64,000 nt of DNA, taken from NCBI GenBank assembly GCA_027262695.1, contig GCA_027262695.1_4722.1; one strand, given 5' to 3'. How positions within the stretch are numbered: position 1 is the stretch's first letter; each line of letters starts with the position of its first letter. Both the position numbers and the translations under genes were made by a program. Of this stretch, positions 3,042 to 43,363 are shown one piece after another. The notes below the pieces were generated by a model. It saw nothing but the letters and a program-made list of their open reading frames with translations. It was not told the DNA's origin and made no database searches. Source of the DNA: a phage.

Positions 3042-3239
3042 TTAACCTTCCATCTTCAATGAGGGATGGTTGACGATATGTGCATGTTTGGTTGGGTCGT
3101 ACGACTGATAAGGGAAATAGCCATGCCATTGACGGCCTTGACATTTCGTACACAGGAACTGACCATCACGGCGTTGATGCTCGTAGGCCAGTTCAGTGCT
3201 ATCAACGTGACCGCAACGTTCGCAGATAAACAGCGACAT
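3042..3239 (-). CDS. small Cys-rich protein (CxxC...CxxC, zinc-ribbon-like)
   Basis: ORF track, 65 aa (MSLFICERCGH...CTKCQG); GGAG RBS; followed by the terminator at 3007. Confidence 0.55.
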   Translation of the reverse strand: MSLFICERCGHVDSTELAYEHQRRDGQFLCTKCQGRQWHGYFPYQSYDPTKHAHIVNHPSLKMEG

Positions 3240-3255
3240 AGCGCATCTCCATGGA

Positions 3256-4236
3256 TTAGAAAAGCAAGAAACCGCTGTTCTTCGCTTCCGCTACGGTTTC
3301 ATCACCCACCTTCGGTGCTTGTTGACGTGCGTTACGATGTTCAACAAAACGTTTTGCTTCGTCCGCGATTTGTTTGATAATACCCCCTAAACGATCGGTG
3401 CTTAATACGAACGATGTCGCTTCACGAATCGGGCTGCTTTCCGGCACAAAACCATCACAGCTATAAATAGCATTAACACCCATGACTTTCGTCGCGTCTT
3501 TCGGATACAACGTACAGAAAGCAATCGGGCTATCATGCTCTTTGGTCCACTCGTATCCCATGAACGTGTTCAATTCGGTGATGGTCGGTTCCAAACCGGT
3601 AACACGAGGATGGTTTAAGAAGTTCTCCAGATCAGCGCTATCCAAGCGACGGTTCTCACCAGAGAACAACACACAGAGTTGGCTGATAACGATCTGGACA
3701 TCCAGGTTAACGTCTTGCTCTGATTTTCCGTTTTCGCCATTCATGTGGTAGCTGACAATCACAGGACGTTTCAACCCTTCTGCGGCTGCCATCAGTCCTT
3801 TGAACGTACGGTCAGCATTGATGGTCTGACGTTCATCGTCAAAGGAGGCAACGATACAGCAAACAACACGCTCACCGCGTTCCAGCAGGTTAGCGACCAG
3901 CGCAGGGCCTGCAACGGAACCCGAACCACCGCTTAAGCTGAAGACGACGATGTTGAATTTACCTGGCGTATGCTTATTAAGAATACCTGGGATTTGTGAG
4001 CAGATCAGTTCAGCATTCTCATCGCGTTTCTTACCGGAACCATCAAGCTCGCGGCCTGCTGCATCTTTAAAGATGTAAATGTGATCATCGTCCAGTGCGC
4101 TATCACGTAGGTTAGCACGGCTGGTATCAACATACGTCATGCTGTGTAATCCTTTCGCGACTTCGCCTTCAAATGCTGAGCCGATTTCGCCACCACAACC
4201 ACCAACCGCCCAAATATGTACTTGGTTCTCTTGCAT
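3256..4236 (-). CDS. phuZ: tubulin/FtsZ-like GTPase, PhuZ-like phage tubulin
   Basis: 326 aa; N-terminal VGGCGGEIG resembles the tubulin GQCGNQIG loop and SGGSGSVAGP resembles the tubulin GGGTGSG signature; AGGAG RBS 6 nt upstream; size matches known PhuZ proteins. Confidence 0.65.
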   Translation of the reverse strand: MQENQVHIWAVGGCGGEIGSAFEGEVAKGLHSMTYVDTSRANLRDSALDDDHIYIFKDAAGRELDGSGKKRDENAELICSQIPGILNKHTPGKFNIVVFSLSGGSGSVAGPALVANLLERGERVVCCIVASFDDERQTINADRTFKGLMAAAEGLKRPVIVSYHMNGENGKSEQDVNLDVQIVISQLCVLFSGENRRLDSADLENFLNHPRVTGLEPTITELNTFMGYEWTKEHDSPIAFCTLYPKDATKVMGVNAIYSCDGFVPESSPIREATSFVLSTDRLGGIIKQIADEAKRFVEHRNARQQAPKVGDETVAEAKNSGFLLF

Positions 4237-4300
4237 GTGAACTCCTAACTTGATATGTATTTAACGCACAATGAATCTTTCTTTACTAAAGGGGTGACCC

Positions 4301-29550: not shown

Positions 29551-30651
29551 TTATTTGGCTTCGTTAAAATAAATATCAACGGCACGTTCCGTTGCGTAGA
29601 GAAGACCCAGATTCACGGTCCCTACCACTTCCGGTGAACCGATGATACGGTTAGCGATACTGGTGCCACTGAAGATAGCATCAAGGGTGTGCCCGTCTTC
29701 GGTTTTGTTCACACCATGACCCACGGAAGAGACAACGGATTTTGCCTGTGCTGCGAAGGTACCTTTATCCCCCATTCCCGCACCCAGGTCGTAACGCATG
29801 AAAATACGGATGGCGATCTGGTTCTCGCCTAACGGATTACCGTCTATTCTCACGTTACTGTTGTTGATGCGTCCCGTTGTTGCTTCGTTGAGTTTCAGTT
29901 CCTTAACGCGTTTAGCTCGCGCTTTATCCGCTTCACCCACAAGTGCTGCCATGGTTTCACTCATGTCTTCAATCTGGGCACGATACAACACATCGATCTG
30001 TACGACTTCACCATGCACGTCAGCCCGTGGGTTATACTGACTCATACGGCGTAACGCTTCAACCGCTTCCTGACTTTCATCGCTCAGATCGGTCGCAATC
30101 GGTTCTTCCAGTGTTGCCAGGATCGTCCGAGGTTCAACATGATCGCCGATTTTCACCAAACCACGAATGTTGAGATGAGCGTCAACAATGAGCGTACGAC
30201 TCTTAATCGATGGTGTTACGAGACGATCAGCGAGATTGTCGAAGATATACGAACTGTCCTCGTGCGTTTCTGGAATATCCAAAATACCAACCAAAGACAG
30301 AACGCCTGCGCGCCAAACCACCTGACCTGGGTTCCACCAATCCCGTTTGAAATAAAGACGATGGAATACCACTACATCCTGATCCTTAACGCGATCACCA
30401 ACTTTATAATCGGTAATGAGATCGTGAGGATAATACTTACCTGGTCCTTTCCCGATTATCGTACCGAGTTGGAAAACCTCTTCCCCTAATTCTGGATCGT
30501 CGTATTGTATCGTAAGCGCTGTTTTGGTGACCTTCTTCACAACACCATCGCCTTGAGCAGCTGCTGCGAAGAGTTTACCAACACGATGCGCGATAACAGT
30601 CTCACCACCTGTACGCCATGGTTGTACGTCGTAACCTTCAGCAGCTATCAT
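29551..30651 (-). CDS. RNA polymerase beta-subunit segment, 3' exon (GDK catalytic-region motif)
   Basis: 366 aa ORF; ...YDLGAGMGDKGTFAAQAKSVVS aligns to the E. coli rpoB GDKMAGRHGNKGVIS region, and IGDHVEPRTILATL / PRADVHGEVVQIDVLY align to upstream rpoB segments; the frame stays open upstream to a stop at 30796..30798, so the exon probably starts between 30652 and 30795. Confidence 0.6.
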   Translation of the reverse strand: MIAAEGYDVQPWRTGGETVIAHRVGKLFAAAAQGDGVVKKVTKTALTIQYDDPELGEEVFQLGTIIGKGPGKYYPHDLITDYKVGDRVKDQDVVVFHRLYFKRDWWNPGQVVWRAGVLSLVGILDIPETHEDSSYIFDNLADRLVTPSIKSRTLIVDAHLNIRGLVKIGDHVEPRTILATLEEPIATDLSDESQEAVEALRRMSQYNPRADVHGEVVQIDVLYRAQIEDMSETMAALVGEADKARAKRVKELKLNEATTGRINNSNVRIDGNPLGENQIAIRIFMRYDLGAGMGDKGTFAAQAKSVVSSVGHGVNKTEDGHTLDAIFSGTSIANRIIGSPEVVGTVNLGLLYATERAVDIYFNEAK

Positions 30652-31148
30652 GCGGTTGTGCTGTATACCTATAAATACGAGACGCTTTGGCGAAATCCAG
30701 CAAAATACAATTACTGTGCGTCTAGATTGTTCAGATAAGGTCGTTAATCTTATCCCGGTGGTGATGATAGGTGCATCACCAACCCGCTTGCGCTCTCACG
30801 CAAGAGCAGACTATATCACATCTCGTTTCAAACGGTGCTTCTTCAGCGCCTCAACGAGAGTTCACTTCTTCCCAGCGCATCCAGCGCCATTCTCTTATCC
30901 AAGGAGAATGCCTCACTCGAGGGGTACAGGGGGATGAATCCCTTAGTCGTTGAACCGTCACCCTAGAACGTTTCACAACGATCCTTAGGCGATTGGCTGC
31001 GGATTGTCCTTAAGCTATTATCTGTTTTATAACCATACCGTCTTTCTTTTCAGAATCCGTTTTGGTCGATAACAGCGATGGATGTCTTCGCAATTCAGTG
31101 AATCTCATCTACATGTCGCCATATAGACGGACCCTGCTATTAAAAGCG
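30652..31148 (-). ncRNA. group I self-splicing intron (boundaries approximate) in the RNAP beta gene
   Basis: Minus strand carries an R-like element GGTTCAACGACTAAGGGATT (30956..30937) and an S-like element TGATATAGTCT (30818..30808) that can form P7 (GACTA/TAGTC), followed by a P9-like hairpin (30806..30786); no ORF >60 aa in the correct orientation. Confidence 0.55.
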
Positions 31149-34100
31149 TTAATCATCTCTGTCGGCAGCAGGTACTGCAAGTGCCGATGTACTCATTATT
31201 GACGAGCTACCATCCGTTTTCTCGTCGTAAGGTTTTGTTTCACCGTATACAGACACGATGTTTGCGTTAGGTGCAAGATAAGCAGAGATACCTACATCGC
31301 CACTGTCCTTCGTACCTTCAGATACCACACCGATGTCTGACTTGTCGTATTCACGATCGCGTGCGCGTCGAAGCGATGTTTTCGAACGACCCCCGATACC
31401 GGTCATCGTTGCTTCTTCACCCTGCTTGATATCCAACATCGGGTTGGTTTCATCGATGACAATAGAAGCACTGTCGTCAAGGATTTGGTTCCAAACGCTC
31501 ACCGGACTGATTGAGATCTTCTGTCGGTTGCCTTGGCTGCTGTTCTCGTTTTGACGAATAGCACCAACCAGATCCTTATACACCAACTCAGCGAACTTAT
31601 CGTACGTTTTGAAGCGCTGGTAGTTCACATCGTTCGTGTTCGGTGCCCAATCATCCAGAAGCAGTTCAACAGCACGTAATAACAACATGGCGAAATCAGT
31701 CGGTTCACCCATGTTCTGCAATAATGTACGACTTACCGGGTCGACGAAAAGACGCTCCATGAGTTCAAGTTCGCGAAGATGACGAACCTTAAGACCTGCA
31801 CCATCGACAACGTTAAAATAGATATCCCGATTGTCAAAAGCGCCGCGAGCGTAACCGATGTAATTACGGTATTCGTTAAATCCACCCAACAACAATGTCG
31901 TCATTCGATCATCTTTACTGAAGATCAAACTTTCATCGTCGAAGCTTACCGCGAATTCATCCGATGCTAAGCCCATACGAGAACCACGAACTACCGTACG
32001 GTAGTTCGCTTTAAGATGTTCTAATAACGGAGTAAGTCCGCCTAGGTAACTTAGCACAACGCCAACCGGGATACGTACGCCCATGAACTCAAGGTCAGCG
32101 GCTTCGATAGGCATCTTCGCGGCATTGATACCGAAGAAATCAGGGAACGTTCCAACCGGCGTTGGGGTTTGATTCGGTTCGTAAACGTACAACTGATTCT
32201 GATTATCCACCGCCAGGAATTCACCGTTGGTGTTTTTGGCGAACGTTAAGAATCCACCCGCCAGCTGTTCGGTGAACAAATCTGCGCCGATATGTTCTGG
32301 CAACGTTTTGATATCGAGGCGTATGTCCCAATCCGCAAATTGAATTTGGGTGTAGTTACGCGCAAGCACAGCGAAGTAATACGGAACTTTGACAGCCGGA
32401 TCAAAGACGTTACCACGTTTTAAGGTGGTTAGCGGGGAGGTTTTATCGTAATACATCGCTGTGAGTTGACGTGTTAACCAACGACCAGCATTATTCACGA
32501 CACGCTCTGAACGTTTAACAAACACCTTACCGTAGGCGGTACTCAACGCAACTTCGGATGATGATACCTTTCTGATAGGTTTATCAACACGTTGTTTACG
32601 CATCCGGTATTTAATACCGTTAACGACATAAATACCGTCCTTACGAACCTTCGGTAACATCACCGGGAACGTCGTTGGAACACCACCCACCGGAGCCAGC
32701 TTGATCGTGATGACCTGGTAATCACCCATCACGTCAACAACATCTTCAACTTTATATCCGGTAACAGGATAGCCTGCTTGTTGCACTGCCACAACGGCCG
32801 CTGCGATGTCCTTTTGCATCACGTGTTCAACGTAATGTTTATCCCACACCGCAAGCGTCGATTTACATAGGCTCTTATCGACGATAACATCCGCTTCCGG
32901 CATAACCTTTGCTGGCGCTAATTTCGCGGCTTTTGGTTTAACCTCAACGTATTCAGCAAGCGTTAGTCCAGAACCGTCAGGTGCTTCAATTTCATGAATC
33001 GCGTCAGCGTTACGCATCGCGGCTTTATATTGAACGCCGCTTAATTGACCCGCATCCGCGAGGTCGCTCGCACGTACCAACACCGCATCGGATAACGACT
33101 GAATATATTCACCGTGCGTTTTCGGCAACGTTGCCGCATCGAAGACATCATCTTTTTCTTCCGGCACGTCGTCGTTGACGACCTCAAAGAGATCATCGGT
33201 GATGTCTTGATCTTCGTCCGGTTGAAAATCGGGCTGAACTTCAACGCCCGGGACTTCACGAACATCTTCGAACGCACGCTCAACAACCGCGTTCCATGCT
33301 TCAGCGTCGTCATCCTCATCCGATCCTCCGATCAACTCGCTTTCCAGTTCATCGGGGTCAAGAACGGTATCGAGATCCTCACCGTTAGGAAGCACGACAT
33401 CACGTTCATCGTACTCCGCATCGGGACTGTCTGCGAGAATATCACGCTCCTGACGAAGAACCTGCTCCTCTTCTTGTTTCTGTTCTTCTTCGTTGGCGCT
33501 CTGCGACCACAGACGGGTTACCGCCATCATCCAACGACGCTGGAATGTTTCAAGCGTTGTCTTATCAAGTTCCTCGCCTTCCTTCGCCAAACCCGAACGC
33601 CATTCTTCCATTAAACCAAGATTCAGGGTAAAGAAATAGACGCCGTCCGTAAATACAACGTTAAGCTTATCCAGCGAAGCACGATCCAATGACGCCATCG
33701 TACTGTTCTCACGATCGACACCTAACCAGCGGAAGAAGTCAAAGAACGACAGCTCCTCTGAGGTGGCAAAATTCATGAGGTTATTACGGGTTGGGGCTTG
33801 TTGTGTCGTACGCATCAACGATATCTTCGGTAACGTCGACGGGATACGGAATAACAAGAACTGCTGACGGTCGCTTTGCTTGGCGATCTCGTTTGCTTGC
33901 GTCCAAATCGTTTTACGCACGTTGAACCACTCATCATACCAACGTGTTAGCGTCGGACGATAGATGTACATGTGGTTAAGATGCGCATAGTTAGCCACGA
34001 TCTGGGCGTTGATGTTCTTCTCAACCTTGCTAAGATCGGTGACCAAACGAAAACGACGATGCGATGCACGGTAATCCAGTTTCGCACGCGGTAGCTGAAA

Positions 34101-34358
34101 TCGCTGATCGCGTCGAGGCGCGCCTTGCTTGGTTGCGAGGTCATCCGCGAACGATATCCAAAGCTGTGCACTTTCTTTGCTCAGCATGTATTCGTTTTCA
34201 GGAGGACCTATTAACGAAGGATCGGTTGCTGTGTAATGATAAACAGCATAACGCGGCAGCTGCAAAAGCTGCACCAAACGCAATCTAGGTGATAATAACT
34301 CTTGATAACGTCGTACACCGAATTGTCTGTAGTAATCAAGGTATTTAAGTTTTGCCAT
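31149..34358 (-). CDS. RNA polymerase beta-like subunit, N-terminal and middle part (5' exon), with a long N-terminal extension
   Basis: 1069 aa; C-terminal region NPMLDIKQGEEATMTGIGGRSK...VSVYGETKPY aligns to the rpoB fork segment [26 protein letters not shown]...LSVYAQTNEY; own ATG with a GGAG RBS; acidic low-complexity insert. Confidence 0.65.
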   Translation of the reverse strand: MAKLKYLDYYRQFGVRRYQELLSPRLRLVQLLQLPRYAVYHYTATDPSLIGPPENEYMLSKESAQLWISFADDLATKQGAPRRDQRFQLPRAKLDYRASHRRFRLVTDLSKVEKNINAQIVANYAHLNHMYIYRPTLTRWYDEWFNVRKTIWTQANEIAKQSDRQQFLLFRIPSTLPKISLMRTTQQAPTRNNLMNFATSEELSFFDFFRWLGVDRENSTMASLDRASLDKLNVVFTDGVYFFTLNLGLMEEWRSGLAKEGEELDKTTLETFQRRWMMAVTRLWSQSANEEEQKQEEEQVLRQERDILADSPDAEYDERDVVLPNGEDLDTVLDPDELESELIGGSDEDDDAEAWNAVVERAFEDVREVPGVEVQPDFQPDEDQDITDDLFEVVNDDVPEEKDDVFDAATLPKTHGEYIQSLSDAVLVRASDLADAGQLSGVQYKAAMRNADAIHEIEAPDGSGLTLAEYVEVKPKAAKLAPAKVMPEADVIVDKSLCKSTLAVWDKHYVEHVMQKDIAAAVVAVQQAGYPVTGYKVEDVVDVMGDYQVITIKLAPVGGVPTTFPVMLPKVRKDGIYVVNGIKYRMRKQRVDKPIRKVSSSEVALSTAYGKVFVKRSERVVNNAGRWLTRQLTAMYYDKTSPLTTLKRGNVFDPAVKVPYYFAVLARNYTQIQFADWDIRLDIKTLPEHIGADLFTEQLAGGFLTFAKNTNGEFLAVDNQNQLYVYEPNQTPTPVGTFPDFFGINAAKMPIEAADLEFMGVRIPVGVVLSYLGGLTPLLEHLKANYRTVVRGSRMGLASDEFAVSFDDESLIFSKDDRMTTLLLGGFNEYRNYIGYARGAFDNRDIYFNVVDGAGLKVRHLRELELMERLFVDPVSRTLLQNMGEPTDFAMLLLRAVELLLDDWAPNTNDVNYQRFKTYDKFAELVYKDLVGAIRQNENSSQGNRQKISISPVSVWNQILDDSASIVIDETNPMLDIKQGEEATMTGIGGRSKTSLRRARDREYDKSDIGVVSEGTKDSGDVGISAYLAPNANIVSVYGETKPYDEKTDGSSSIMSTSALAVPAADRDD

Positions 34359-34361
34359 GGG

Positions 34362-34548
34362 TTAGGCTCCACGAGGTCCCGTTAAGTTGCGTAATAGGAA
34401 CGCAACCGTATCGTAACCAATATCAATGTTGAATTTATTTTTACCGCTTACCCAGAAAGCACGCTTCTTGTGCGAGTTGGTAATTTCGTCGATGGCTTCC
34501 ATGGAATAAAGAACGTTAACCGAGACCGTATCACCGTCGAACCTTGTC
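34362..34548 (-). CDS. RNA polymerase beta-prime N-terminal subunit, 3' exon carrying the FDGD catalytic motif
   Basis: Minus-strand frame open from 34562: RTEAKTRFDGDTVSVNVLYSMEAIDEITNSHKKRAFWVSGKNKFNIDIGYDTVAFLLRNLTGPRGA-stop; resembles rpoC [20 protein letters not shown]...SQDVVLGLYY; stop TAA lies 3 nt before the beta-gene ATG. Confidence 0.5.
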
Positions 34549-35198
34549 TTCGCCTCAGTTCGCTACGCTGAGACCGCCTGCATGGATACGTACATGACAG
34601 GCTGCTTGCACTTTCATGCAAGAGGAGACTATATCAAACCGGCAGCTTCACCTTCTCGATCGTATCGAGAATGCGGTGCTGAAGTATTCTTCAGCAGCAC
34701 CTGCTACGGTAACCTACACTTCGAAGACGCTTGTCCTCTACAGGGTGGTAAATCCCTTAGTCGTTGAACCTGCGTTGTTTCCCATTCTTGGTTGCAAGAA
34801 TGCCGTATTACTACGCAACAACCAGGCTGCTGATTGCCCATTGTCTCGCACCTTAGCACCGCTTACGCGGCTTTTCTTTCAGCCTAAGCCTCTTACGGAG
34901 GTAGTGCATCTCAACTGTTGTTTCTGCCTTTCGGCACCCCATGGGTCGTTGAGCTTTAGGGGTTCCCAGCAATTCGTAGGTTTTTCAAGCACTCCCTTTC
35001 GGGAATACCGGACAACTTCCCTTGAAAAAAGTCTTTATTTTTCAAGGACTTATCCCCGCCGAGTCCCTGGAGGTACGGGCTCGGAATGCAAACCGTTTCT
35101 ACGAACGATGCTTTTTGTTTCCAATCAGGGTATTCCCATGCGATATATCGTTCGTCAGTAATCGGTTCCCAATTACTATCAAGTTCTGTCTTGGGAGA
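34549..35198 (-). ncRNA. group I self-splicing intron (boundaries approximate) in the RNAP beta-prime gene
   Basis: Minus strand carries R-like GGTTCAACGACTAAGGGATT (34770..34751), S-like TGATATAGTCT (34636..34626) and a P9-like hairpin (34622..34605) that shows a compensatory pair change relative to the other intron. Confidence 0.55.
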
Positions 35199-36518
35199 AG
35201 CGTTAACGGTTGTACGCGCATAACAGGTTAACGGAATGACTGACTGCATGCCCGATACCGGATAACGTGTTACCATCGCAGCCAGGTTGTTCCAGTATTT
35301 ATATCCTGCGATATAGATAAGCTCAGTATAAGTAATGGGGTGAACATCCGCACCAGGTTTGTTAAGCATCTCTGGCGGTATTTCACTCATACCGCGGAAA
35401 AGTCGGAATGAATCGTTGTTTACATAAACCAAACAGAGATAACGACCATTCACCATGATAGGTTCGTTACGTACGCCTGGATCGCTTAGCGTGTTCAATA
35501 AACGTTCGATACCATCCCAAGTAGTAAAGTCATCGATGGTGTCAGGATCAAGTACGACTCGTTCACGTTCCATCGTTTCGGTATCGATAAGCTCAACCTC
35601 GGTAACATCACGGACGAAGATCTCTTGCAAAATACCAGTACGTAATGCGTGTTGCGTTATCGGAAGGGCTGCTTTGCTCATCTGGTATAGACCAAGCTGT
35701 ACAGATGTACATGACGTTTGGTTTGGAGAACCGAGAACCTCCGTTGTGGGGTTAATTGCCGAAATAACGTTACGGGTTGAGTTCCAAACACGACGTGAAC
35801 CGAACTTACCTTGGAAGATCCCTTTCTTACCCTGGAACATATCCAACAGCAATGCGTAGATATCATTGAAGGTTCTTTGCAGGCTCCAGCGCTGTCCGTC
35901 GTAGACAGGATCGTTGTAGTCCTTTAATCCATCGGGAACGGTATTGGAGATAGCAAGGAAACGACGGTAGAGCTCCGTGATTTCTTGTTCGCTTTCATAC
36001 CCGCCTTCCTTTACTTCTATTTCACGAAGACCAGCAGGTAACACCAATAAATGACGGGTCATCGCTTTGAACATGTTTTCTTCGACAACTTTAATACGCA
36101 GTTCTCGTTGCGCTGAACCTGTTGAAACGAACTTGATCTCCGCAACGTGTTGTGCGAAGAAACCGTAGCCGGTTTGTCCCGTTAATGCGTCAGCAGCAAC
36201 GAAATCACGCTGTTCTGGATCCCATCGTGCATAAGCTTTACCGGACATGATATCGCCATAAAGGTGTTTCAATCGAATAAGGCGATCGTAAATGACCGGA
36301 TGCAAGATTTCCACTTTACACTCGATGACCGCAAAGCGGCGATCACGATCTTCACTACCCGCACTCCCAAAGATGGTGTATGAATAAAAACCATCATCAT
36401 GGAAATTACCCGTACTCGGGTCACGGATACTCATGCTGGTAATCTTAGGAAGGAAACGCAACTGCTGCTTATCAAGATGCAGTATACTGATATTGAACGG
36501 CTCTCTGACTTTAGCCAT
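35199..36518 (-). CDS. RNA polymerase beta-prime N-terminal subunit, 5' exon (ORF reads through into the intron to 34956)
   Basis: ORF 34956..36551; start trimmed to Met 12 (AAGGAG RBS); LPAGLREI...GGYESEQEITELYRRF resembles rpoC [44 protein letters not shown] resembles GKRVDYSGRSVI; homology ends near ...ARTTVNA (about 35199). Confidence 0.6.
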
Positions 36519-36691
36519 GGATGCACTCCTTAAATAAGGCGGCGGTATCATCTGAACACATGAGAGACGTAATGGGTGAAGCCATCACCCATCGCTTCCC
36601 TGCTTGATGCGAGGAAGGTATTAAATTACGTACCTGTCCGATGGCCTCGAACAGGCGATGTATGAAGCTATGCTTCAATTTGGAGGTATAC

Positions 36692-39600
36692 ATGGTAGAT
36701 AAAACCCGTGTTGAGGGTGATGATAATTGGGATAACTGGGATGAGGACTTCTCCCTGGATCTCGATTTTGATGAACCCAAAGACGACCGTAAGCCCATAA
36801 CCCGTTATGCAATAGGTGTCGCCAAAGGGGCTGCTGAAGATCTTACTTCCTACGAAAGAATGAAGGAGATCGCCAGAAACGCATTACCTAAGGGTTATAG
36901 CGACGGTATGGATCTTATCGATTCCGCCGTCGGATCCACGAAGGAACTATACAATGAAGCCGTTCGTGACATTCTTCCGAAGGTACAAAGCTCAAAACGG
37001 TTAGCCGCACAACTGACGAAAAAATACCGTGCGAGCATGCCCGATTTCTCGAAGAAAATTATCGAGCGTTGGGAGCAAGAAGCCAAGGAAGAAGACGAAC
37101 GTAAACAGGCGGAAGCCGATCTTAAACAACGCATGGCGAATGCAGGTGATGAAGAAATCGCTCGCAAGGTCGCTGAGGCGTTAGGAGAAGCGGCTAACCA
37201 GAACGCGGATCAGTTTGCAGAACAACAAGCAAAAGAAAGTATCCGTGACGATATTGCTGATAAACGTTATAATGTCACCAACAAACAGATGAGCGCGATG
37301 CAGGAAGGCATCGCCAAGATGGTTGGTTTCAATAACGAATTCGCCGCACGCTATATGCGTAAAAGCCTGGAACTAAAATACCGTTCTTTGGCGATACAAC
37401 GCGCGAGTTTCGATCAGCATAAAAAGTTAGCCGAAGTCTATATCGGTTTATTACAGAACATCCAAAAGAACACGGCTTTACCGGATGCGGCTAAAGCAAA
37501 AATGTCGGAAGAATTTCGTCGCACAGCGTACCAACGTTTCTTTGGTAACGCATTGAATGCGATGAGTTCTTTCGAGAACCGTTTCTTTGCTGATGTTAAG
37601 AAAAACCTTGCAACCAATGCGTTGGGTGCGTTGAAAGGTGTTGTGTCTGGCGCACACGACGCCCTCTCCGGTTTAAACGAAGCACGCGACTCGATGTCCA
37701 TGATGGACGGTATGGGGTCAGAAGGCGATATTAAGGAAATGCAAGGGAAGATGCTGGGTCAGTTGATCGGCTCAACCGTTGCACCATGGATGGCGAATAA
37801 AGGCATGACGGCATTGCGGGATTTAGCAAAACGTCATCCTAACGCTAAATTCGCCAACGCGTTAAAAGCGGTCGATCAAGGCGGTGAAGCTGCTGCTTAT
37901 ACAACGCGTAACGTTGGGAAACTGCTGCAAGAAGATCTTCGTAAAAACGAATTCAACCTCAGCGATCCCTTCTACAAACAGTTCCTGCGTGGGGCTGGAC
38001 GTTGGGCCTTCAATCTGGACGGTGGTCGTAACTTCCGTGTGATGAACGACACCGCGGAGACGTTAGCTGAACAAACATCTTTCGATGGTTTAACCTATCG
38101 TAGCATCAACGAGGTCATTCCCGGATTTCTTGCTCGTATACTGAAAAGCACTGAAGGTATCCGTACCGGTGAAAATGATCCTGATTACGAGGTCTATGAT
38201 GGCATCAGCGGGCAATTCGTTGCTCAACGTACCCGCGAACAAGGTGTAACCGACACCCTCTTTAACAAACGTTCGTTCGGTTATTACGCCGGTCGTTTTA
38301 ATGAAGTTATCTCGGTTATCGATCCCGATAAACAGCTGTCAGAAAAGGCAAGGAAAGCCTTGGCTAAACAGTTAGCACGCGACAGCGATGCGAACATGGC
38401 TTTCGATCCTGCTCGATATACCGACGAAAGTAACTTTGATCGCAGCATCGATAGAGACGCCATTAAAGAACTTTCTGCGTATTTCAAAGATCGTTACGGC
38501 ATTCGTGACGATGTTGATGATGAAGGTAACCGTCAACAGGTTATTGAAAACCGTGGGCAGTACTACACGGAACGTAACCGCGCTGATCTGCGGTACGGTA
38601 ATCTGAAATCCTTGCAGCCGGATATCCAACGCAACCTTAACCTTCTGAAACGTACCGGTGATGTTCAATACCTGGAACGCATCGGGATCGTAACAAGAAA
38701 CAGCGATGGCAGTTATTCGGTTAATCACGATCGTTACTTCTCTGAAATCGATCAATACATCGACCGACCGGAATACGCTGACCGTGGTGATGTTAACACG
38801 CGACTCAGTGCCCAACAGACCAGGGCGTTGGCGTTAGGCTATCGTGACGACGTTGCGTCAAACGCTGACGTACAAAATCGTGCGTTACCAAACCTCGATC
38901 GAACAACGGTCGGAACGGTAAACATCGATGAGAACATCGGATACGAGAAATGGTGGAACGATGCGGGTGTTATCACCACATCGCTTGAAGACCAAAATCG
39001 AGCATGGCAAGAACTCTATCTTGAAGCGCTTCAGGAAGCTTCGCATCAACGTGAAACGATGCTGGAACTTCTGAAAGCGATCTCAGAAAAAGAATGGGGT
39101 GGTAGCGGCGTTGGCCGCCAGGGCGAACCTGGCGGTGAAGAAAGTGATGATCGCTCTATGTTAGGTCGGATCTCCGACCTAACACTAGGTAAAGCCGGTA
39201 GCTATGCCTGGAAAGGTGCAAAAGGAGCTGCCAAGTTCGGATGGAAATGGGGTCGAAAAGCGGCGACATGGGGCGCAAAACGTACGTGGGGAAGCTTCGT
39301 AAACTCAGCGCGTCGAATTATCAACTTCAACCGTTTTGTGTTCGGTGCGTTATCCAAGGTCGATCAAGTTCCGTTTGACATTTACGTTAAAGGTGAAGAT
39401 CGTCCACGTATCTTAGCTGCAAAACTTCGTCAAGGTCTGTATTTCGATGAAGCCACCGGCAAAGCCGTCAAACGGATGAAGGATATTAAAGGTCCGTTAG
39501 TTGATGCTGACGGCAACATCGTCATCAGCGCTGAAGATATCGAGAAGGGATTGATTACGCGCGCTGGACGTGCCTTCGAAAACTCCGGTTTGAAAGCATG

Positions 39601-42600
39601 GGCACGTGAAGGTATCAACGGCATCACCACGGTATTAAGTTTACCAAGACTTTTAAAACGCGGTGCTACGGAGCTTTACAAGCATTTCGATAAAACACCT
39701 GACGTATACGTGACTGGTGAATCCACTCCACGTCTGCTTTCTCTGGTGATGGCGGCAGGCGGTTATTTCCGTAAGTCCGATGGGAAAGTCATCAAGCATC
39801 TGGAAGACATCGACGGTGATGTGGTTGACGCACAAGGAAACGTCATCCTGACCCACGCTGATATGCAGAAAGGGTTGGTCGATAAATACGGTAAGAAGAT
39901 ACGTCGCCTGAAAGAAAAGCTGATCAACTTCGGTGTGAAAGCTTTCACCTTACCGTTAACCTTATTGCGTAAGACAAAAGACATCCTGAAGAATCTCCCC
40001 ACGAAAGCCATGAACGGGTTGCGTCGTATGGGCCTGAACTTCCGTTTACCGGAAGAGGTGCTTATCGGTACAACCGCAGGCATGGTGGATCGTCTCGACG
40101 CTATTTATCAGCTTCTTGATAAACGCATGCCAGGTGGGGATAAGGATTATCGTGATTGGAACGGTGATGGTGTTCGTGAAGGATCGCTTGAAGATCTGAA
40201 ACGTAAACGCGCTGAGAAAGAAGGAGAAAAAGGAGAAGGTACAGGTAAAGGATCCGGGAAAGGAGAAGAGAAGGAGAAGAAAAAAGGAATTCTTGGGAGC
40301 CTTTTCGACATGCTTGGTGACACCGCACTTGGTAAACGTTTAATGGCGAGTCCGCTTGGAAAGATTCTGGGTGGCCTTGGATCCATTCTCAGCGGTGGTG
40401 CATCATTAACGGGGTTACTTGGGAAAGGTTTGCTTAAAGGCTCAGGCGCACTCCTCAGAGGGGGTTTAAGTGCTGCGGGTTGGTTAGGACGTGGTGCCCT
40501 GATGGCAGGCGGTGCTGCGCTTAATGCGGTAGGAGGATTATCCGGGCTTGGTGCTGCGCTTATCTCCCCGGTTGGGTTAGCGATTGCGGGCGGCGCATTA
40601 GCTGCCTATGCGGGTTGGAAAATCTATCAACATTTCGCTGATAAGCCTGACCCGATGCAGAAACTTCGTCTTATTGCATACGGTGCAAAAGGGGATGATA
40701 AGGACTTCAACAAGAAGTTATTGCAAACCGAAACCTACCTTACCGACCATGTGGTCATGACGGGAGATACCATCGGATTCAATCCAAAAGCAGATTCTGA
40801 AAAGATTCTTGAAATCTGGGAACTGTCATTGGAAGATACTGACCGGATGAATGAATGGAAGCGCTGGTATCTACATCGCTTTATCCCCGTTTTCGCTCGT
40901 GCGTTTAAACTCTGGAAAGAGCACATGCCGGACGAGAAGAAGTTCATGGAGATGGACGACTACCCCAACGGTGAGAACAAAGTCAAATGGTCAGAAGCCT
41001 TCATCTGGCCATCGGATAGTCCAGACAGCCCGTACTATGTTGAAGCTAACCCGTTAGGTTCGGCTGGCGCAACGTTATACATCGCGGGACAGGATGTTAA
41101 AAAGCTCATGGAAAGCCAGCTGGAAGTCATCAGGAAGGAATATCAAAACCAGATCAAGAAATACACGCACGATGAAGCGATTAAAGACTGGTCGAAGCTG
41201 TCTGACGCCCAACGTAAGTCCGTTGCGCCTAACGCGTTACGTGGACAGAAAGCCTCTTTACGTTTCAGCGATAACAAGTATAACAGTGCGGGTGTTAAAG
41301 GTCGTCAGAAACTGGACGCTACTGCGGTTGTTGAAAGCGTGGATCGTCGCGGTAAGAAATGGATGGCCGGTGGGTACATCGATGAACTTACCAGTTTACG
41401 TATCCGCGCCTACGGGTTAGAGGTTCCGCTGTTAAGCCAAATCAAGGTATTGATGGAACTGGAAGACGCGGTTGAACCTGGCGTTGTTGCTGAAGGTAAA
41501 GGCGTCAAATACGGCGGTAATCTCGCGGAGCTGTATAAGAAGTTCGCATCGAAATTCGGTCGGGATGTCAACGGCAAACAAGACCAGAACATCTGGTTTG
41601 CCTGGATGAACAACCGTTTCTTGCCGGTCTTCTTAACGTACTATCAGCAAGTTGGCGAGATGGGCGGACAAGGGCTGTTATCAGATGTTGTACAGAATCT
41701 GAAAGACAGCCAGCGTTGGGAAATCGGTGAGGCGTTGGTTGCTGCGCAATACAAGGATGAGAAGGGTGCGCTACAGCCGGTATGGTCGTGGAACAGTTGT
41801 GGTTTCTCTGGCACCAAAGCAAACATGTCCAGCAGTTCAACCAAGAGCCAACTCGATCTGTTAAAAGAATACGCAGATAAAGAGAAGGTTCGTGAGAAGA
41901 ACGCTGAAGCATCGCAGGAGGATGAAGATAAATTATCGAAAATCCAAGAGCAGTTGATGAAGCAAGCGGGATATGAGAAGAAGGACGGTGTTTGGCAGAA
42001 GAAATCACGTATCACGGGTGGGATGAGCAACGCGGAGGCGAACTACAATCCGAACCGTAACGAGGTTGGCAGAAGTAGCTTTACTGCTTCAGCAACCTCC
42101 AGCGCAGGTTTGGGTAGTGGTGGACCGGATATCACCGGGTTACCGAACATGGGACTGAAGAAACCCGCATCAGGTCCTGGTCCAGAAGCGGGTCGTCGTG
42201 CGGCAATTAAATCAGCGGTGAAGCACGGTATTACCGATCCGATGGAAATGGCGATGTTCTTATCGAACCTCGAACATGAATCCGGTAACTACAGGTATGT
42301 CCGCGAACTTAACTACACAAAACCCGACAGTCTGAAGAAAGCGTTCAGTCGTAAATTCAGGGATGAGCAGGACGCTGCCCAGACCATCAGCATGGGTCCA
42401 GAGGCGGTATTCGAACGTGTGTATGGAATGCGTAAGGATCTGGGAAATACCCAGAAAGGTGACGGAGCGAAATATCTGGGGCGTGGTTATATCCAGGTTA
42501 CAGGTAAAGCCAACTACGCACGATTGTCGAAGATCCTGAATAAAGATCTGGTTAGCGATCCATCGTATTTGGAAACCCCAGAAGGTGCAGCCGAAGGGAG

Positions 42601-43363
42601 TGTTGCGTGGTGGCTTAACAGGGGTAACGTATTACGCGATCCCGCAAAGCGTGGCGATGTTCGCCAGGTTCGTTACCTGGTTAACGGGGGGTATAACGGG
42701 CTACGCGATGTTGAGCAACGTTCAGCGTATTGGATTCAAGCTGCTAAAAGCGGTACATTGAAGAAAATGATGGATGAGGTTGCAGGTTCAACCTCAGACG
42801 ATCAAGCTGAAGGTCCGTCTACCGCCAGCCAAGTGAAGAACGAGGAGGCGCAAGAAACCAACAGCACACCAACATCAAGCAACGATCCGCAAGCACCGTC
42901 GGCAACCGCGACGCCTGAAGTCAAACCGTCAGCGGCCTCCGGTACCGCACCGGCACCCGGAACGGCAACACCGACACCAGGAAGTTTCGATACCGCAAAA
43001 GCTGCTGCTGGACAACCAGCGTCAACACCAGCGCCTAGCGAATTACCGTCAAACCCTGGTGCAAATCGAGGAATTTCAGTTCCAAATACACCTGCACAGG
43101 TTGCGCAGTCCGCAACACAAACATCGGCAGCAAGTGAAAACTTCTACGGTAGTGCAGGTGAGATTCTTCGTCAGCAGTTGACCGTGCAACAAAACATCGA
43201 GAAGAACACCGGTAAGACCAACGAACTGATCTCAGAATTGATCCAGGCTGTTAAAGGATCAACGATCGGTAAAGGTTCGACAGGATCTTCTCAACAACAG
43301 ACGATGTCGCTACCTAATCGTCCGCAAGGAATCTCTCCAACACGGACAAGGTACGCGCAGTAG
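36692..43363 (+). CDS. giant virion-associated protein with a C-terminal GH19 lysozyme-like domain (tape-measure or ejection-type)
   Basis: ORF 36641..43363 trimmed to the ATG after a GGAGG RBS; coiled-coil-rich N-terminal two thirds, Gly-rich hydrophobic block, GH19 motifs LEHESGN and YLGRGYIQVTGKANY plus SVAWWLNRG (about 42200..42760), then an Ala/Pro/Thr-rich tail; length close to phiKZ gp181 as recalled. Confidence 0.75.
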   Translation: MVDKTRVEGDDNWDNWDEDFSLDLDFDEPKDDRKPITRYAIGVAKGAAEDLTSYERMKEIARNALPKGYSDGMDLIDSAVGSTKELYNEAVRDILPKVQSSKRLAAQLTKKYRASMPDFSKKIIERWEQEAKEEDERKQAEADLKQRMANAGDEEIARKVAEALGEAANQNADQFAEQQAKESIRDDIADKRYNVTNKQMSAMQEGIAKMVGFNNEFAARYMRKSLELKYRSLAIQRASFDQHKKLAEVYIGLLQNIQKNTALPDAAKAKMSEEFRRTAYQRFFGNALNAMSSFENRFFADVKKNLATNALGALKGVVSGAHDALSGLNEARDSMSMMDGMGSEGDIKEMQGKMLGQLIGSTVAPWMANKGMTALRDLAKRHPNAKFANALKAVDQGGEAAAYTTRNVGKLLQEDLRKNEFNLSDPFYKQFLRGAGRWAFNLDGGRNFRVMNDTAETLAEQTSFDGLTYRSINEVIPGFLARILKSTEGIRTGENDPDYEVYDGISGQFVAQRTREQGVTDTLFNKRSFGYYAGRFNEVISVIDPDKQLSEKARKALAKQLARDSDANMAFDPARYTDESNFDRSIDRDAIKELSAYFKDRYGIRDDVDDEGNRQQVIENRGQYYTERNRADLRYGNLKSLQPDIQRNLNLLKRTGDVQYLERIGIVTRNSDGSYSVNHDRYFSEIDQYIDRPEYADRGDVNTRLSAQQTRALALGYRDDVASNADVQNRALPNLDRTTVGTVNIDENIGYEKWWNDAGVITTSLEDQNRAWQELYLEALQEASHQRETMLELLKAISEKEWGGSGVGRQGEPGGEESDDRSMLGRISDLTLGKAGSYAWKGAKGAAKFGWKWGRKAATWGAKRTWGSFVNSARRIINFNRFVFGALSKVDQVPFDIYVKGEDRPRILAAKLRQGLYFDEATGKAVKRMKDIKGPLVDADGNIVISAEDIEKGLITRAGRAFENSGLKAWAREGINGITTVLSLPRLLKRGATELYKHFDKTPDVYVTGESTPRLLSLVMAAGGYFRKSDGKVIKHLEDIDGDVVDAQGNVILTHADMQKGLVDKYGKKIRRLKEKLINFGVKAFTLPLTLLRKTKDILKNLPTKAMNGLRRMGLNFRLPEEVLIGTTAGMVDRLDAIYQLLDKRMPGGDKDYRDWNGDGVREGSLEDLKRKRAEKEGEKGEGTGKGSGKGEEKEKKKGILGSLFDMLGDTALGKRLMASPLGKILGGLGSILSGGASLTGLLGKGLLKGSGALLRGGLSAAGWLGRGALMAGGAALNAVGGLSGLGAALISPVGLAIAGGALAAYAGWKIYQHFADKPDPMQKLRLIAYGAKGDDKDFNKKLLQTETYLTDHVVMTGDTIGFNPKADSEKILEIWELSLEDTDRMNEWKRWYLHRFIPVFARAFKLWKEHMPDEKKFMEMDDYPNGENKVKWSEAFIWPSDSPDSPYYVEANPLGSAGATLYIAGQDVKKLMESQLEVIRKEYQNQIKKYTHDEAIKDWSKLSDAQRKSVAPNALRGQKASLRFSDNKYNSAGVKGRQKLDATAVVESVDRRGKKWMAGGYIDELTSLRIRAYGLEVPLLSQIKVLMELEDAVEPGVVAEGKGVKYGGNLAELYKKFASKFGRDVNGKQDQNIWFAWMNNRFLPVFLTYYQQVGEMGGQGLLSDVVQNLKDSQRWEIGEALVAAQYKDEKGALQPVWSWNSCGFSGTKANMSSSSTKSQLDLLKEYADKEKVREKNAEASQEDEDKLSKIQEQLMKQAGYEKKDGVWQKKSRITGGMSNAEANYNPNRNEVGRSSFTASATSSAGLGSGGPDITGLPNMGLKKPASGPGPEAGRRAAIKSAVKHGITDPMEMAMFLSNLEHESGNYRYVRELNYTKPDSLKKAFSRKFRDEQDAAQTISMGPEAVFERVYGMRKDLGNTQKGDGAKYLGRGYIQVTGKANYARLSKILNKDLVSDPSYLETPEGAAEGSVAWWLNRGNVLRDPAKRGDVRQVRYLVNGGYNGLRDVEQRSAYWIQAAKSGTLKKMMDEVAGSTSDDQAEGPSTASQVKNEEAQETNSTPTSSNDPQAPSATATPEVKPSAASGTAPAPGTATPTPGSFDTAKAAAGQPASTPAPSELPSNPGANRGISVPNTPAQVAQSATQTSAASENFYGSAGEILRQQLTVQQNIEKNTGKTNELISELIQAVKGSTIGKGSTGSSQQQTMSLPNRPQGISPTRTRYAQ

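Follow-up and report, generated by a model that had tools for sequence, protein, structure and literature searches.

What are the two segments that share an identical 20-mer, an identical 11-mer and an adjacent hairpin, and that lie in two neighbouring genes of a 64,000-nucleotide stretch of phage DNA (GenBank assembly GCA_027262695.1, contig GCA_027262695.1_4722.1; the whole of this stretch is referred to below as the window)? Our analysis leads to the conclusion, to which we assign a probability of about 0.9, that they belong to two related group I introns, devoid of open reading frames (ORFs), which interrupt active-site codons of two neighbouring virion RNA polymerase (RNAP) genes. This conclusion is founded on the group I identity of both elements, their exact junctions, covariation in P9/P9.1/P9.2 and P7, and the presence/absence polymorphism of the introns in related genomes.

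Identification of the introns

Both elements are group I introns. Comparison with Rfam revealed two matches to RF00028 (group I intron) on the minus strand, at 35037..34605 (58.4 bits) and 31153..30787 (51.0 bits). The gathering score of this family is 50 bits, and both matches span model positions 1-253, i.e. the full length from P1 to P9. No other segment of the window reached the threshold of any Rfam family. The introns (A and B) and their flanking exons are as follows (evidence in brackets):

35052..36518, minus strand: gene A, exon 1 (phrog_2986, RNAP subunit, E=1.6e-162 with a 531-aa ORF)
34542..35051, minus strand: intron A, 510 nt, no ORF, in the beta'-N-like virion RNAP gene (RF00028 and the allele of locus L017)
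34362..34541, minus strand: gene A, exon 2, 59 codons and stop, beginning FDGDTVSVNV (L017 allele and beta' alignment)
31152..34358, minus strand: gene B, exon 1, 1069 codons, ending ...AADRDD (phrog_3148, E=1.3e-289)
30691..31151, minus strand: intron B, 461 nt, no ORF, in the beta-like virion RNAP gene, a homologue of phiKZ gp178 (RF00028 and the Goslar gp207 allele)
29551..30690, minus strand: gene B, exon 2, beginning PKRLVFIGIQHNRM (phrog_3148 positions 1065-1422 and Goslar alignment)

In plus-strand reading, the window contains two exact copies of the 20-mer AATCCCTTAGTCGTTGAACC (30937-30956 and 34751-34770), with no third site at up to 2 mismatches and no match in 100 dinucleotide-preserving shuffles, and the 11-mer AGACTATATCA has exact copies at 30808-30818 and 34626-34636. 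The plus-strand hairpins are CTTGCG-CTCTCA-CGCAAG (30787-30804) and CTTGCA-CTTTCA-TGCAAG (34605-34622). Since the genes run on the minus strand, the RNA contains the complementary versions of the motifs, GGUUCAACGACUAAGGGAUU and UGAUAUAGUCU. According to the Rfam alignment, the 20-mer consists of J6/7, the 5′ strand of P7 and an insertion that follows it, the 11-mer of J8/7 and the 3′ strand of P7, and the hairpin is P9; the P7 strands GACUA and UAGUC are present in both introns. P7 together with its joiners forms the guanosine-binding site of group I introns.

The exact matches confirm the presence of the 20-mer, the 11-mer and the adjacent hairpin in both introns, as reported in an earlier, sequence-only reading of this DNA. 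The interval given there (30786-34770) does contain the motifs, but it extends from P9 of intron B to P7 of intron A, with approximately 3.2 kb of exon in between. The description of the catalytic core as near-identical holds for P7, J8/7 and P9, but not for P3, P5, P6 and P8, which differ or cannot be aligned. No Pfam or PHROG match was obtained for any sense or antisense ORF that overlaps an intron, and both introns are therefore regarded as ORF-less.

Host genes and splice junctions

The closest known genome is that of the Escherichia coli jumbo phage Goslar (88.5% nucleotide identity across the locus). The phage carrying the introns is a Goslar-like nucleus-forming jumbo phage, and the interrupted genes are two adjacent virion RNAP genes. 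The 1069-aa and 366-aa ORFs of gene B cover positions 2-1050 and 1065-1422, respectively, of phrog_3148 (1424 positions). The identity of gene B is based on PHROG, the Goslar annotation and the PhiPA3 paper cited below; Pfam revealed no domain in any unspliced exon ORF, and phmmer gave no match between the gene B junction region and the PDB sequences. The mechanically predicted ORF of gene A starts at 36551 (MIPPPYLRSASM...), and the equivalent of the Goslar gp205 start is located at 36518 (MAKVREPF), which is probably the true start of the gene.

The limits of intron B (31151..30691) are fixed by the intron-less allele of Goslar: gp207 is uninterrupted, and the alignment shows a clean 461-nt insertion between ...GAC AGA GAT GAT and CCA AAG CGT. 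The intron extends approximately 95 nt past the Rfam match at its 3′ end. The limits of intron A (35051..34542, 510 nt) were established from the intron-less allele of the IMG/VR genome UViG 3300011560_000001 (L017), in which the uninterrupted gene A reads GGT GGG GAC TTT GAT GGT GAT (GGDFDGD). In the window, the 5′ junction of intron A follows GGC GGG GAT (T at 35052) and the 3′ junction precedes TTC GAC GGT GAT (34541).

The spliced products (a slash marks the junction) read ...YLQGLGGD/FDGDTVSVNV... for gene A (559 aa from the mechanical ORF start at 36551) and ...AADRDD/PKRLVFIGIQHNRM... for gene B (1448 aa). The junction GLGGD/FDGDTVSVNV aligns with the NADFDGD motif of a solved RNAP beta' chain, which indicates that intron A splits the universal Mg-binding motif NADFDGD. 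The gene B junction corresponds to HDD/ANR of the E. coli beta subunit, the second Asp being residue 1069 in the window, and ParM-25 and Yaphecito likewise join at /CCA AAx CGA (/PKR). Shifts of the intron B junction by 1-3 bases were rejected, as they violate the U(-1)/omega-G rules or the reading frame.

Covariation in the RNA structure

As RNA, P9 reads CUUGCAU-GAAA-GUGCAAG in intron A and CUUGCGU-GAGA-GCGCAAG in intron B, i.e. the stem has 7 bp, with a U.G pair closing the GNRA tetraloop. The exchange of A-U for G-C, on which the sequence-only reading had based its claim of selection on RNA structure, is a true compensatory change; it concerns, however, the second pair from the loop and not the closing pair.

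In order to follow this signal in other introns, we assembled a homologue set composed of four Goslar-like genomes, the td intron, other jumbo-phage introns (found with BLAST and tblastn) and copies from a metagenome scan. Folded singly, the 3′ domains formed three consecutive hairpins, P9, P9.1 and P9.2, each time, with differing stem sequences; the exception was td, for which P9.2 was missing from the minimum free energy fold of the isolated fragment. A covariance model built on P9/P9.1/P9.2, which replaced a plain MAFFT alignment, detected only the two introns in the window (78.9 and 74.7 bits) and 23 further copies across the loci, several of them outside the seed. Standard pairs made up 92.6% of the cells in an alignment of 21 distinct sequences, compared with 59.1% in shuffles (0 of 500 reached the observed value) and 33-46% in a control with the partners slid by 1-3 columns, although these percentages are somewhat inflated, as the alignment was fitted to the model. 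The shuffled and slid controls nevertheless fall far below this value, and no alignment enters into the single-sequence folds. Cells changed on both sides numbered 117 (38 expected), and 14 of the 17 pairs have such double-sided changes. The P9 pair flagged by the sequence-only reading occurs across the alignment as AU (8), GC (6), UA (3), CG (1) and GU (1). Covariation thus persists strongly in P9, P9.1 and P9.2 once homologues are added, the outcome that this reading had proposed to look for.

Further changes were found in the core. In P7, two distant homologues (Proteus phage 7, Staphylococcus phage S6) have C-G in place of U-A; in P4, intron A has U-A and intron B has G-C. Comparison of intron B of the window with its copy in L004 revealed changes from C-G to U-A in P6a, from U-A to C-G in P6b and from A-U to G.U in P2. 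In P8 of intron A (34638-34710), Goslar and L004 share G-to-A (GUAGCAGG to GUAACAGG) and C-to-A (GCUGCCGG to GCUGACGG) changes, which break G-C in one register and create U-A and A-U in another, and the base register of P8 is therefore uncertain.

Architecture of the introns

Both introns contain P1, P2 and P3 to P8, the hairpins P7.1 (AGGG...CCCU) and P7.2 between P7 and P3′, and then P9, P9.1 and P9.2. Intron B alone has an added hairpin, P9.3, ahead of the terminal UCG. The elements are located as follows (evidence in brackets):

35020..35047, minus strand: intron A, P1-extension hairpin CCUUGAAAAA-UAAAGACU-UUUUUCAAGG (comparison with relatives)
35010..35015, minus strand: intron A, guide UUGUCC predicted to pair with GGAU/AA in P1, with G.U at the splice site (sequence)
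34751..34770, minus strand: intron A, 20-mer GGUUCAACGACUAAGGGAUU, J6/7, P7 5′ strand and P7.1 5′ strand (Rfam alignment)
34626..34636, minus strand: intron A, 11-mer UGAUAUAGUCU, J8/7 and P7 3′ strand (Rfam alignment)
34605..34622, minus strand: intron A, P9 (Rfam, folding, covariation)
34601..34577 and 34574..34552, minus strand: intron A, P9.1 and P9.2, followed by the tail GAAGACAAGG to omega-G 34542 (folding, covariation)
31128..31134, minus strand: intron B, candidate guide GGGUCCG, in which GUC pairs with the exon GAU (sequence)
30937..30956, minus strand: intron B, 20-mer, same elements as in intron A (exact match, Rfam alignment)
30808..30818, minus strand: intron B, 11-mer UGAUAUAGUCU, J8/7 and P7 3′ strand (Rfam alignment)
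30787..30804, minus strand: intron B, P9 (Rfam, folding, covariation)
30784..30757, 30756..30734 and 30728..30694, minus strand: intron B, P9.1, P9.2 and P9.3, followed by UCG with omega-G 30691

A GUCCG segment is located immediately upstream of P2 in both introns, and it could pair with the terminal GAU of the exon. Both upstream exons end in GAU, as does exon 1 in every relative resolved; both introns end in G, and GUCC or GUC guides sit upstream of P2. The predicted P1 is convincing for intron A (GGAU/AA with UUGUCC), and shorter and less certain for intron B.

The 3′ domain has the same order as in the td intron of T-even phages, i.e. J8/7-P7′-GCUCU-P9 (GNRA)-AGC-P9.1-P9.2 with the loop AUUAACGAC, and the tail CUGAACA. 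Moreover, 31 nt of intron B (30758..30728; P9.2 and CUGAACA; L005 1801-1831) are 100% identical to td in 226 phage records. This match in order and spacing, together with the 31-nt identity, argues for a td-like, IA2-type assignment of both introns, the IA2 label following the published classification of td. In contrast to the window introns, td resides in a thymidylate synthase gene and encodes a GIY-YIG endonuclease (I-TevI), with the ORF placed elsewhere, and the remainder of its ribozyme has diverged beyond BLAST detection. The identical 31 nt comprise the P9.2 hairpin GGGAUAAG-AUUAACGAC-CUUAUCU and GAACA; other family members keep the loop and have different stems. Since here the stem itself is identical, module exchange between unrelated families of E. 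coli phages, or an unusually strong constraint, is suggested.

Relationship between the two introns

Whole-intron MAFFT alignment of A and B proved unreliable in the 5′ half, and local BLAST segments were used instead. In the 3′ half, these showed approximately 62% identity over about 200 nt, rising to 80-90% in patches, whereas the P5, P6 and P8 regions (5′ halves) could not be aligned. Judging from these sequences, introns A and B are not recent copies of one another, and the word copies applies to them only loosely. The shared motifs themselves tell little of a special relationship, because 12 of the 20 and 10 of the 11 bases are invariant family-wide: GUUCAACGACUA (of the 20-mer) and GAUAUAGUCU (of the 11-mer) are unchanged in nearly all 18 family members examined. 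The likeness specific to A and B resides in the P7.1 strand AGGGAUU, the GUCCG guide segment and the nearly identical J7/9-P9 sequence CUCUUGCNUGANAGNGCAAGC.

In an all-against-all comparison, A, B and the intron of Vibrio phage pir03 were mutual best non-orthologous matches (76-111 bits, compared with about 630 bits for orthologues); the pir03 intron, like A, is inserted at /FDGD, though in another beta' gene. The introns found in PhiPA3, 201phi2-1, ParM-25 and Yaphecito at the position of intron B (site B) cluster apart, together with an intron of PhiPizzaParty from the position of intron A (site A), which indicates that the ribozyme lineage does not follow the insertion site.

Do these data reflect the spread of one intron within the RNAP locus, as the sequence-only reading had supposed? 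A and B might instead be independent invasions from a widespread phage IA2 pool, their shared motifs being a matter of family-wide conservation; we consider this a serious possibility, though one with less than an even chance. The near-invariance of the motifs and the unalignable 5′ halves fit such an origin, and the pir03 intron is as near to A and B (85-111 bits) as these are to each other (76-89 bits); besides, the two introns differ in their orthologues and in their pattern of presence and absence across sister phages. Nevertheless, A and B are mutual near-best matches outside their orthologues, they share the guide segment and J7/9-P9, and the full 20-mer, including AGGGAUU of P7.1, was found elsewhere only in pir03 among the named phage introns compared. 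The PhiPA3 intron, inserted at the very site of B, is far less similar to B (62 bits), and the site is thus not lineage-determining. Taken together, the sequences fit occasional site-switching in a shared intron pool. The claim of one intron family stands, while spread within this locus is plausible only, as the pir03 intron is equally close.

Distribution and mobility in related phages

As expected of mobile introns, both sites are polymorphic among the Goslar-like genomes (site A, beta' GGD/FDGD; site B, beta DD/):

Window: site A, intron without ORF; site B, intron without ORF
L004/L018: site A, intron without ORF; site B, intron without ORF
Goslar: site A, intron with the 490-aa HNH gene gp206 in the P1 loop; site B, empty
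UViG 3300011560 (L017/L002): site A, empty; site B, intron with a 403-aa HNH gene running into P3-P6
L057 and L064: site A, intron; site B, empty
OGZS01000006 (L059/L061): site A, diverged intron; site B, diverged intron
L062: site A, intron with an insert of about 1.6 kb; site B, outside coverage
L058: site A, intron of 546 nt; site B, outside coverage

All intron ORFs examined in the relatives are of the HNH_3/NUMOD1, I-HmuI type, like PhiPA3 gp210. The window introns encode no homing endonuclease, whereas their orthologues in Goslar and L002 encode HNH_3/NUMOD1 proteins. The P1-extension hairpin of intron A is situated at the place of gp206 and is similar to the final ~25 nt of the Goslar gp206 ORF region, which suggests that a gp206-like endonuclease gene was deleted from the window intron. 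In L002, the 3′ end of the 403-aa HNH ORF (3054-4265) overlaps approximately 175 nt of the ribozyme core (P3-P4-P5-P4′-P6), and a near-repeat (GUUUCACUG ... GAUUCAUUG) lies on either side of the ORF; at its 5′ end, this intron lacks the GUC guide and holds the direct repeat AUUAAGGC.

The window introns are 96-98% identical to the copies of Goslar, L004 and L002/L017, compared with 81-87% for the upstream exons. The last 300 nt of gene B exon 1 are 92-95% identical in intron-plus genomes and 83% identical in intron-less Goslar, a flank pattern that fits the one expected from homing with co-conversion. Among the chimallivirus records, 244 of 286 and 269 of 292 are uninterrupted at the two sites, and a minority are split at exactly these residues; all of the split phage records fetched (8 of 8) contain group I cores. 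The exact 20-mer was present on eight metagenomic contigs, mostly of 180-250 kb, and in none of the 185,579 bacterial and archaeal genomes scanned.

Points against the interpretation and alternative explanations

Besides the inflated pairing percentages mentioned above, several observations weigh against the interpretation of the two elements as introns of active-site codons: (i) a plain MAFFT alignment analyzed with RNAalifold recovered only the 3 innermost pairs of P9 (all covarying), because the divergent stems were out of register; (ii) P1 of intron B is short, the exon side comprising the GAU/GUC pairing alone, and no convincing P1 was found on inspection of the L002 copy of this intron; (iii) an alternative 3′ splice site of intron B, 6 bases upstream (..GCUGG/AUUUCG), would add Ile-Ser to the product (DD-IS-PKR), although its use is disfavoured because it breaks P9.3 (where U.G is changed to C-G in L002) and because ParM-25 and Yaphecito join at /PKR; and (iv) intron A is only 79-93% identical in diverged metagenomic relatives, so that stronger conservation of introns than of exons is not universal. 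Self-splicing of both introns, i.e. autocatalytic, guanosine-dependent excision, is a prediction from the sequence.

An alternative would be that the introns are decaying, splicing-defective relics, with the RNAP subunits produced in split form or the RNAP genes reduced to pseudogenes. Both introns are without endonuclease genes, the P1 of intron B is weak and its Rfam score exceeds the threshold by just 1 bit, and RNAP genes of jumbo phages are naturally split at other places (PMC7598289). A split in NAD/FDGD, however, would part three catalytic aspartates with no translation signals provided for exon 2, and exon 2 of gene A has no in-frame start codon of its own at the junction. The core helices are all intact and maintained by compensatory changes across the sister phages, and the same intron A is found in Goslar, a phage that is viable and in culture. 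We therefore consider decay very improbable.

The notion that the shared segments are remnants of a longer duplicated protein-coding sequence, to which mechanical ORFs overlapping both regions (e.g. a 181-aa antisense ORF at 34616-35161) might point and which the sequence-only reading had named as its own refutation, is practically excluded by the significant Rfam matches, the lack of any family match for these ORFs, the precise absence of the regions from sister genomes with intact RNAP genes (intron-less alleles exist at both sites), the RNAP motifs restored at the junctions, and substitutions that keep base pairing and not codons. The pair-keeping changes support selection on RNA structure rather than on coding, as that reading had maintained.

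Comparison with known introns

Two group I introns in neighbouring active-site codons thus remain the preferred explanation, and they have close counterparts. In PhiPA3, the gp210 intron interrupts the virion RNAP beta gene, and the second of the Asp residues concerned is D1072 of phiKZ gp178 (Birkholz et al. 2024, Science; PMC11620839). Intron B of the window occupies the identical site after the two conserved Asp residues (D1072 corresponds to residue 1069 of the window). Both are group I introns with P9/P9.1/P9.2, and the L002 sister copy of intron B carries a gp210-type HNH/NUMOD gene. Unlike the PhiPA3 intron, intron B has no endonuclease gene, its exon 2 starts with PKR and not MKR, and its ribozyme is of a different lineage (62 bits against PhiPA3, about 100 against pir03 and 89 against Goslar intron A). 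The 201phi2-1 homologue (gp273/274) is annotated as interrupted by a mobile element.

Intron A is orthologous to Intron_gpI of Goslar (NC_048170, ncRNA HOV27_gs002), with 96.4% identity over 472 nt and the same GGD/FDGD site. The Goslar intron differs in that the P1 loop region contains the 490-aa HNH_3 ORF gp206, in place of which the window has a 28-nt hairpin, and Goslar has no intron B. In the GenBank record of Goslar (L001 1591-5285) the exons are not joined: gp205 ends at a stop after 13 intron codons, and no feature is annotated for exon 2 (59 codons, FDGDTVSV...). Gp206, annotated as hypothetical, is an HNH_3/NUMOD1 endonuclease inside the P1 loop of the intron. The Goslar genome paper (PMC6563267) makes no mention of an intron.

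Group I cores detected with Rfam are also located at beta' DFDGD in pir03/C-ZP2022, Proteus phage 7, PhiPizzaParty and Vibrio phage 2 TSL-2019. As in the window, exon 2 starts with FDGD or YDGD where resolved, and pir03 has the exact 20-mer; in contrast to the window introns, most of them carry HNH ORFs, and the records do not annotate introns at the motif. The introns of pir03 (L006 2752-3179) and Proteus phage 7 (L007 2928-3304) lie at /FDGD of a second beta'-like gene, which probably belongs to the non-virion RNAP; the virion beta' homologue of Proteus phage 7 is uninterrupted. The DFDGD motifs of both RNAP paralogues appear to be hot-spots of intron insertion. In Vibrio phage C-ZP2022 (L013, L016), both sites (beta' GAD/ and beta DD/) hold group I cores, each with an ORF annotated as a putative endonuclease. 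This phage is the endonuclease-bearing counterpart of the window arrangement; its site-A junction looked slightly different (GADFD...).

HNH-bearing introns in chimallivirus RNAP genes are already known (published for PhiPA3, annotated in 201phi2-1), as is the annotation of Goslar intron A as Intron_gpI. New are the ORF-less members at two neighbouring active-site positions and NAD/FDGD as a recurrent target, although neither is conceptually new.

Proposed mechanism and implications

In the mechanism that we propose, the introns would be transcribed from the minus strand within the RNAP pre-mRNAs, each directly after the Asp GAU codon of an active-site motif (beta' NAD/FDGD for the 510-nt intron, beta HDD/ for the 461-nt intron). 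P1 would arise from pairing of the exon-terminal GAU with the GUC guide upstream of P2, placing a G.U wobble at the splice site. P7 and its joiners, assembled from the 20-mer and the 11-mer, would create the guanosine-binding catalytic pocket, while P9 (with its GNRA loop), P9.1 and P9.2 may act as a 3′ peripheral domain stabilizing the core. Guanosine-initiated transesterification would then excise each intron after its terminal G and join the exons, giving ...LGGDFDGDTV... and ...ADRDDPKRLVF.... Since the copies in sister phages carry I-HmuI-type HNH genes, or the sites are empty, the window introns may represent an intermediate stage in the homing cycle, as derivatives without ORFs, and the sites that they occupy would presumably be immune to the cognate endonucleases.

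A bolder extension, which we offer tentatively and consider rather unlikely, is that one GUC-guide scaffold has repeatedly moved among the Asp-GAU codons of RNAP genes (virion beta' NAD/FDGD, the second beta' gene and beta HDD/) by reverse splicing or illegitimate homing, that ORF-less copies are kept for immunity to HNH endonucleases, and that the td identity results from module exchange. If so, such introns would provide a nuclease-free defence against co-infecting Goslar-like phages, in interference competition of the kind shown for PhiPA3 and phiKZ.

The analysis corrects the gene models of two essential virion RNAP subunits, which are truncated or split in current Goslar-like annotations. 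It also identifies beta' NADFDGD, like the reported beta "DD" site, as a recurrent group I target across nucleus-forming jumbo phages. The Goslar-like group, with empty, ORF-less and endonuclease-bearing states at two neighbouring sites, constitutes a natural system for the study of homing, endonuclease loss and phage competition in E. coli.

Additional observations

Locus L056 carries the 20-mer, with no match to the 3′-domain model or, by BLAST, to the window introns and exons. The 3′-domain model also matches Staphylococcus jumbo phage S6 (L008 4044-4127), L060 and L063; the latter two carry the exact 20-mer, yet they are not Goslar-like. A 2240-aa ORF (36641-43363, plus strand) divergent from the RNAP genes corresponds by position to Goslar gp204, which is annotated as a tail fiber protein.

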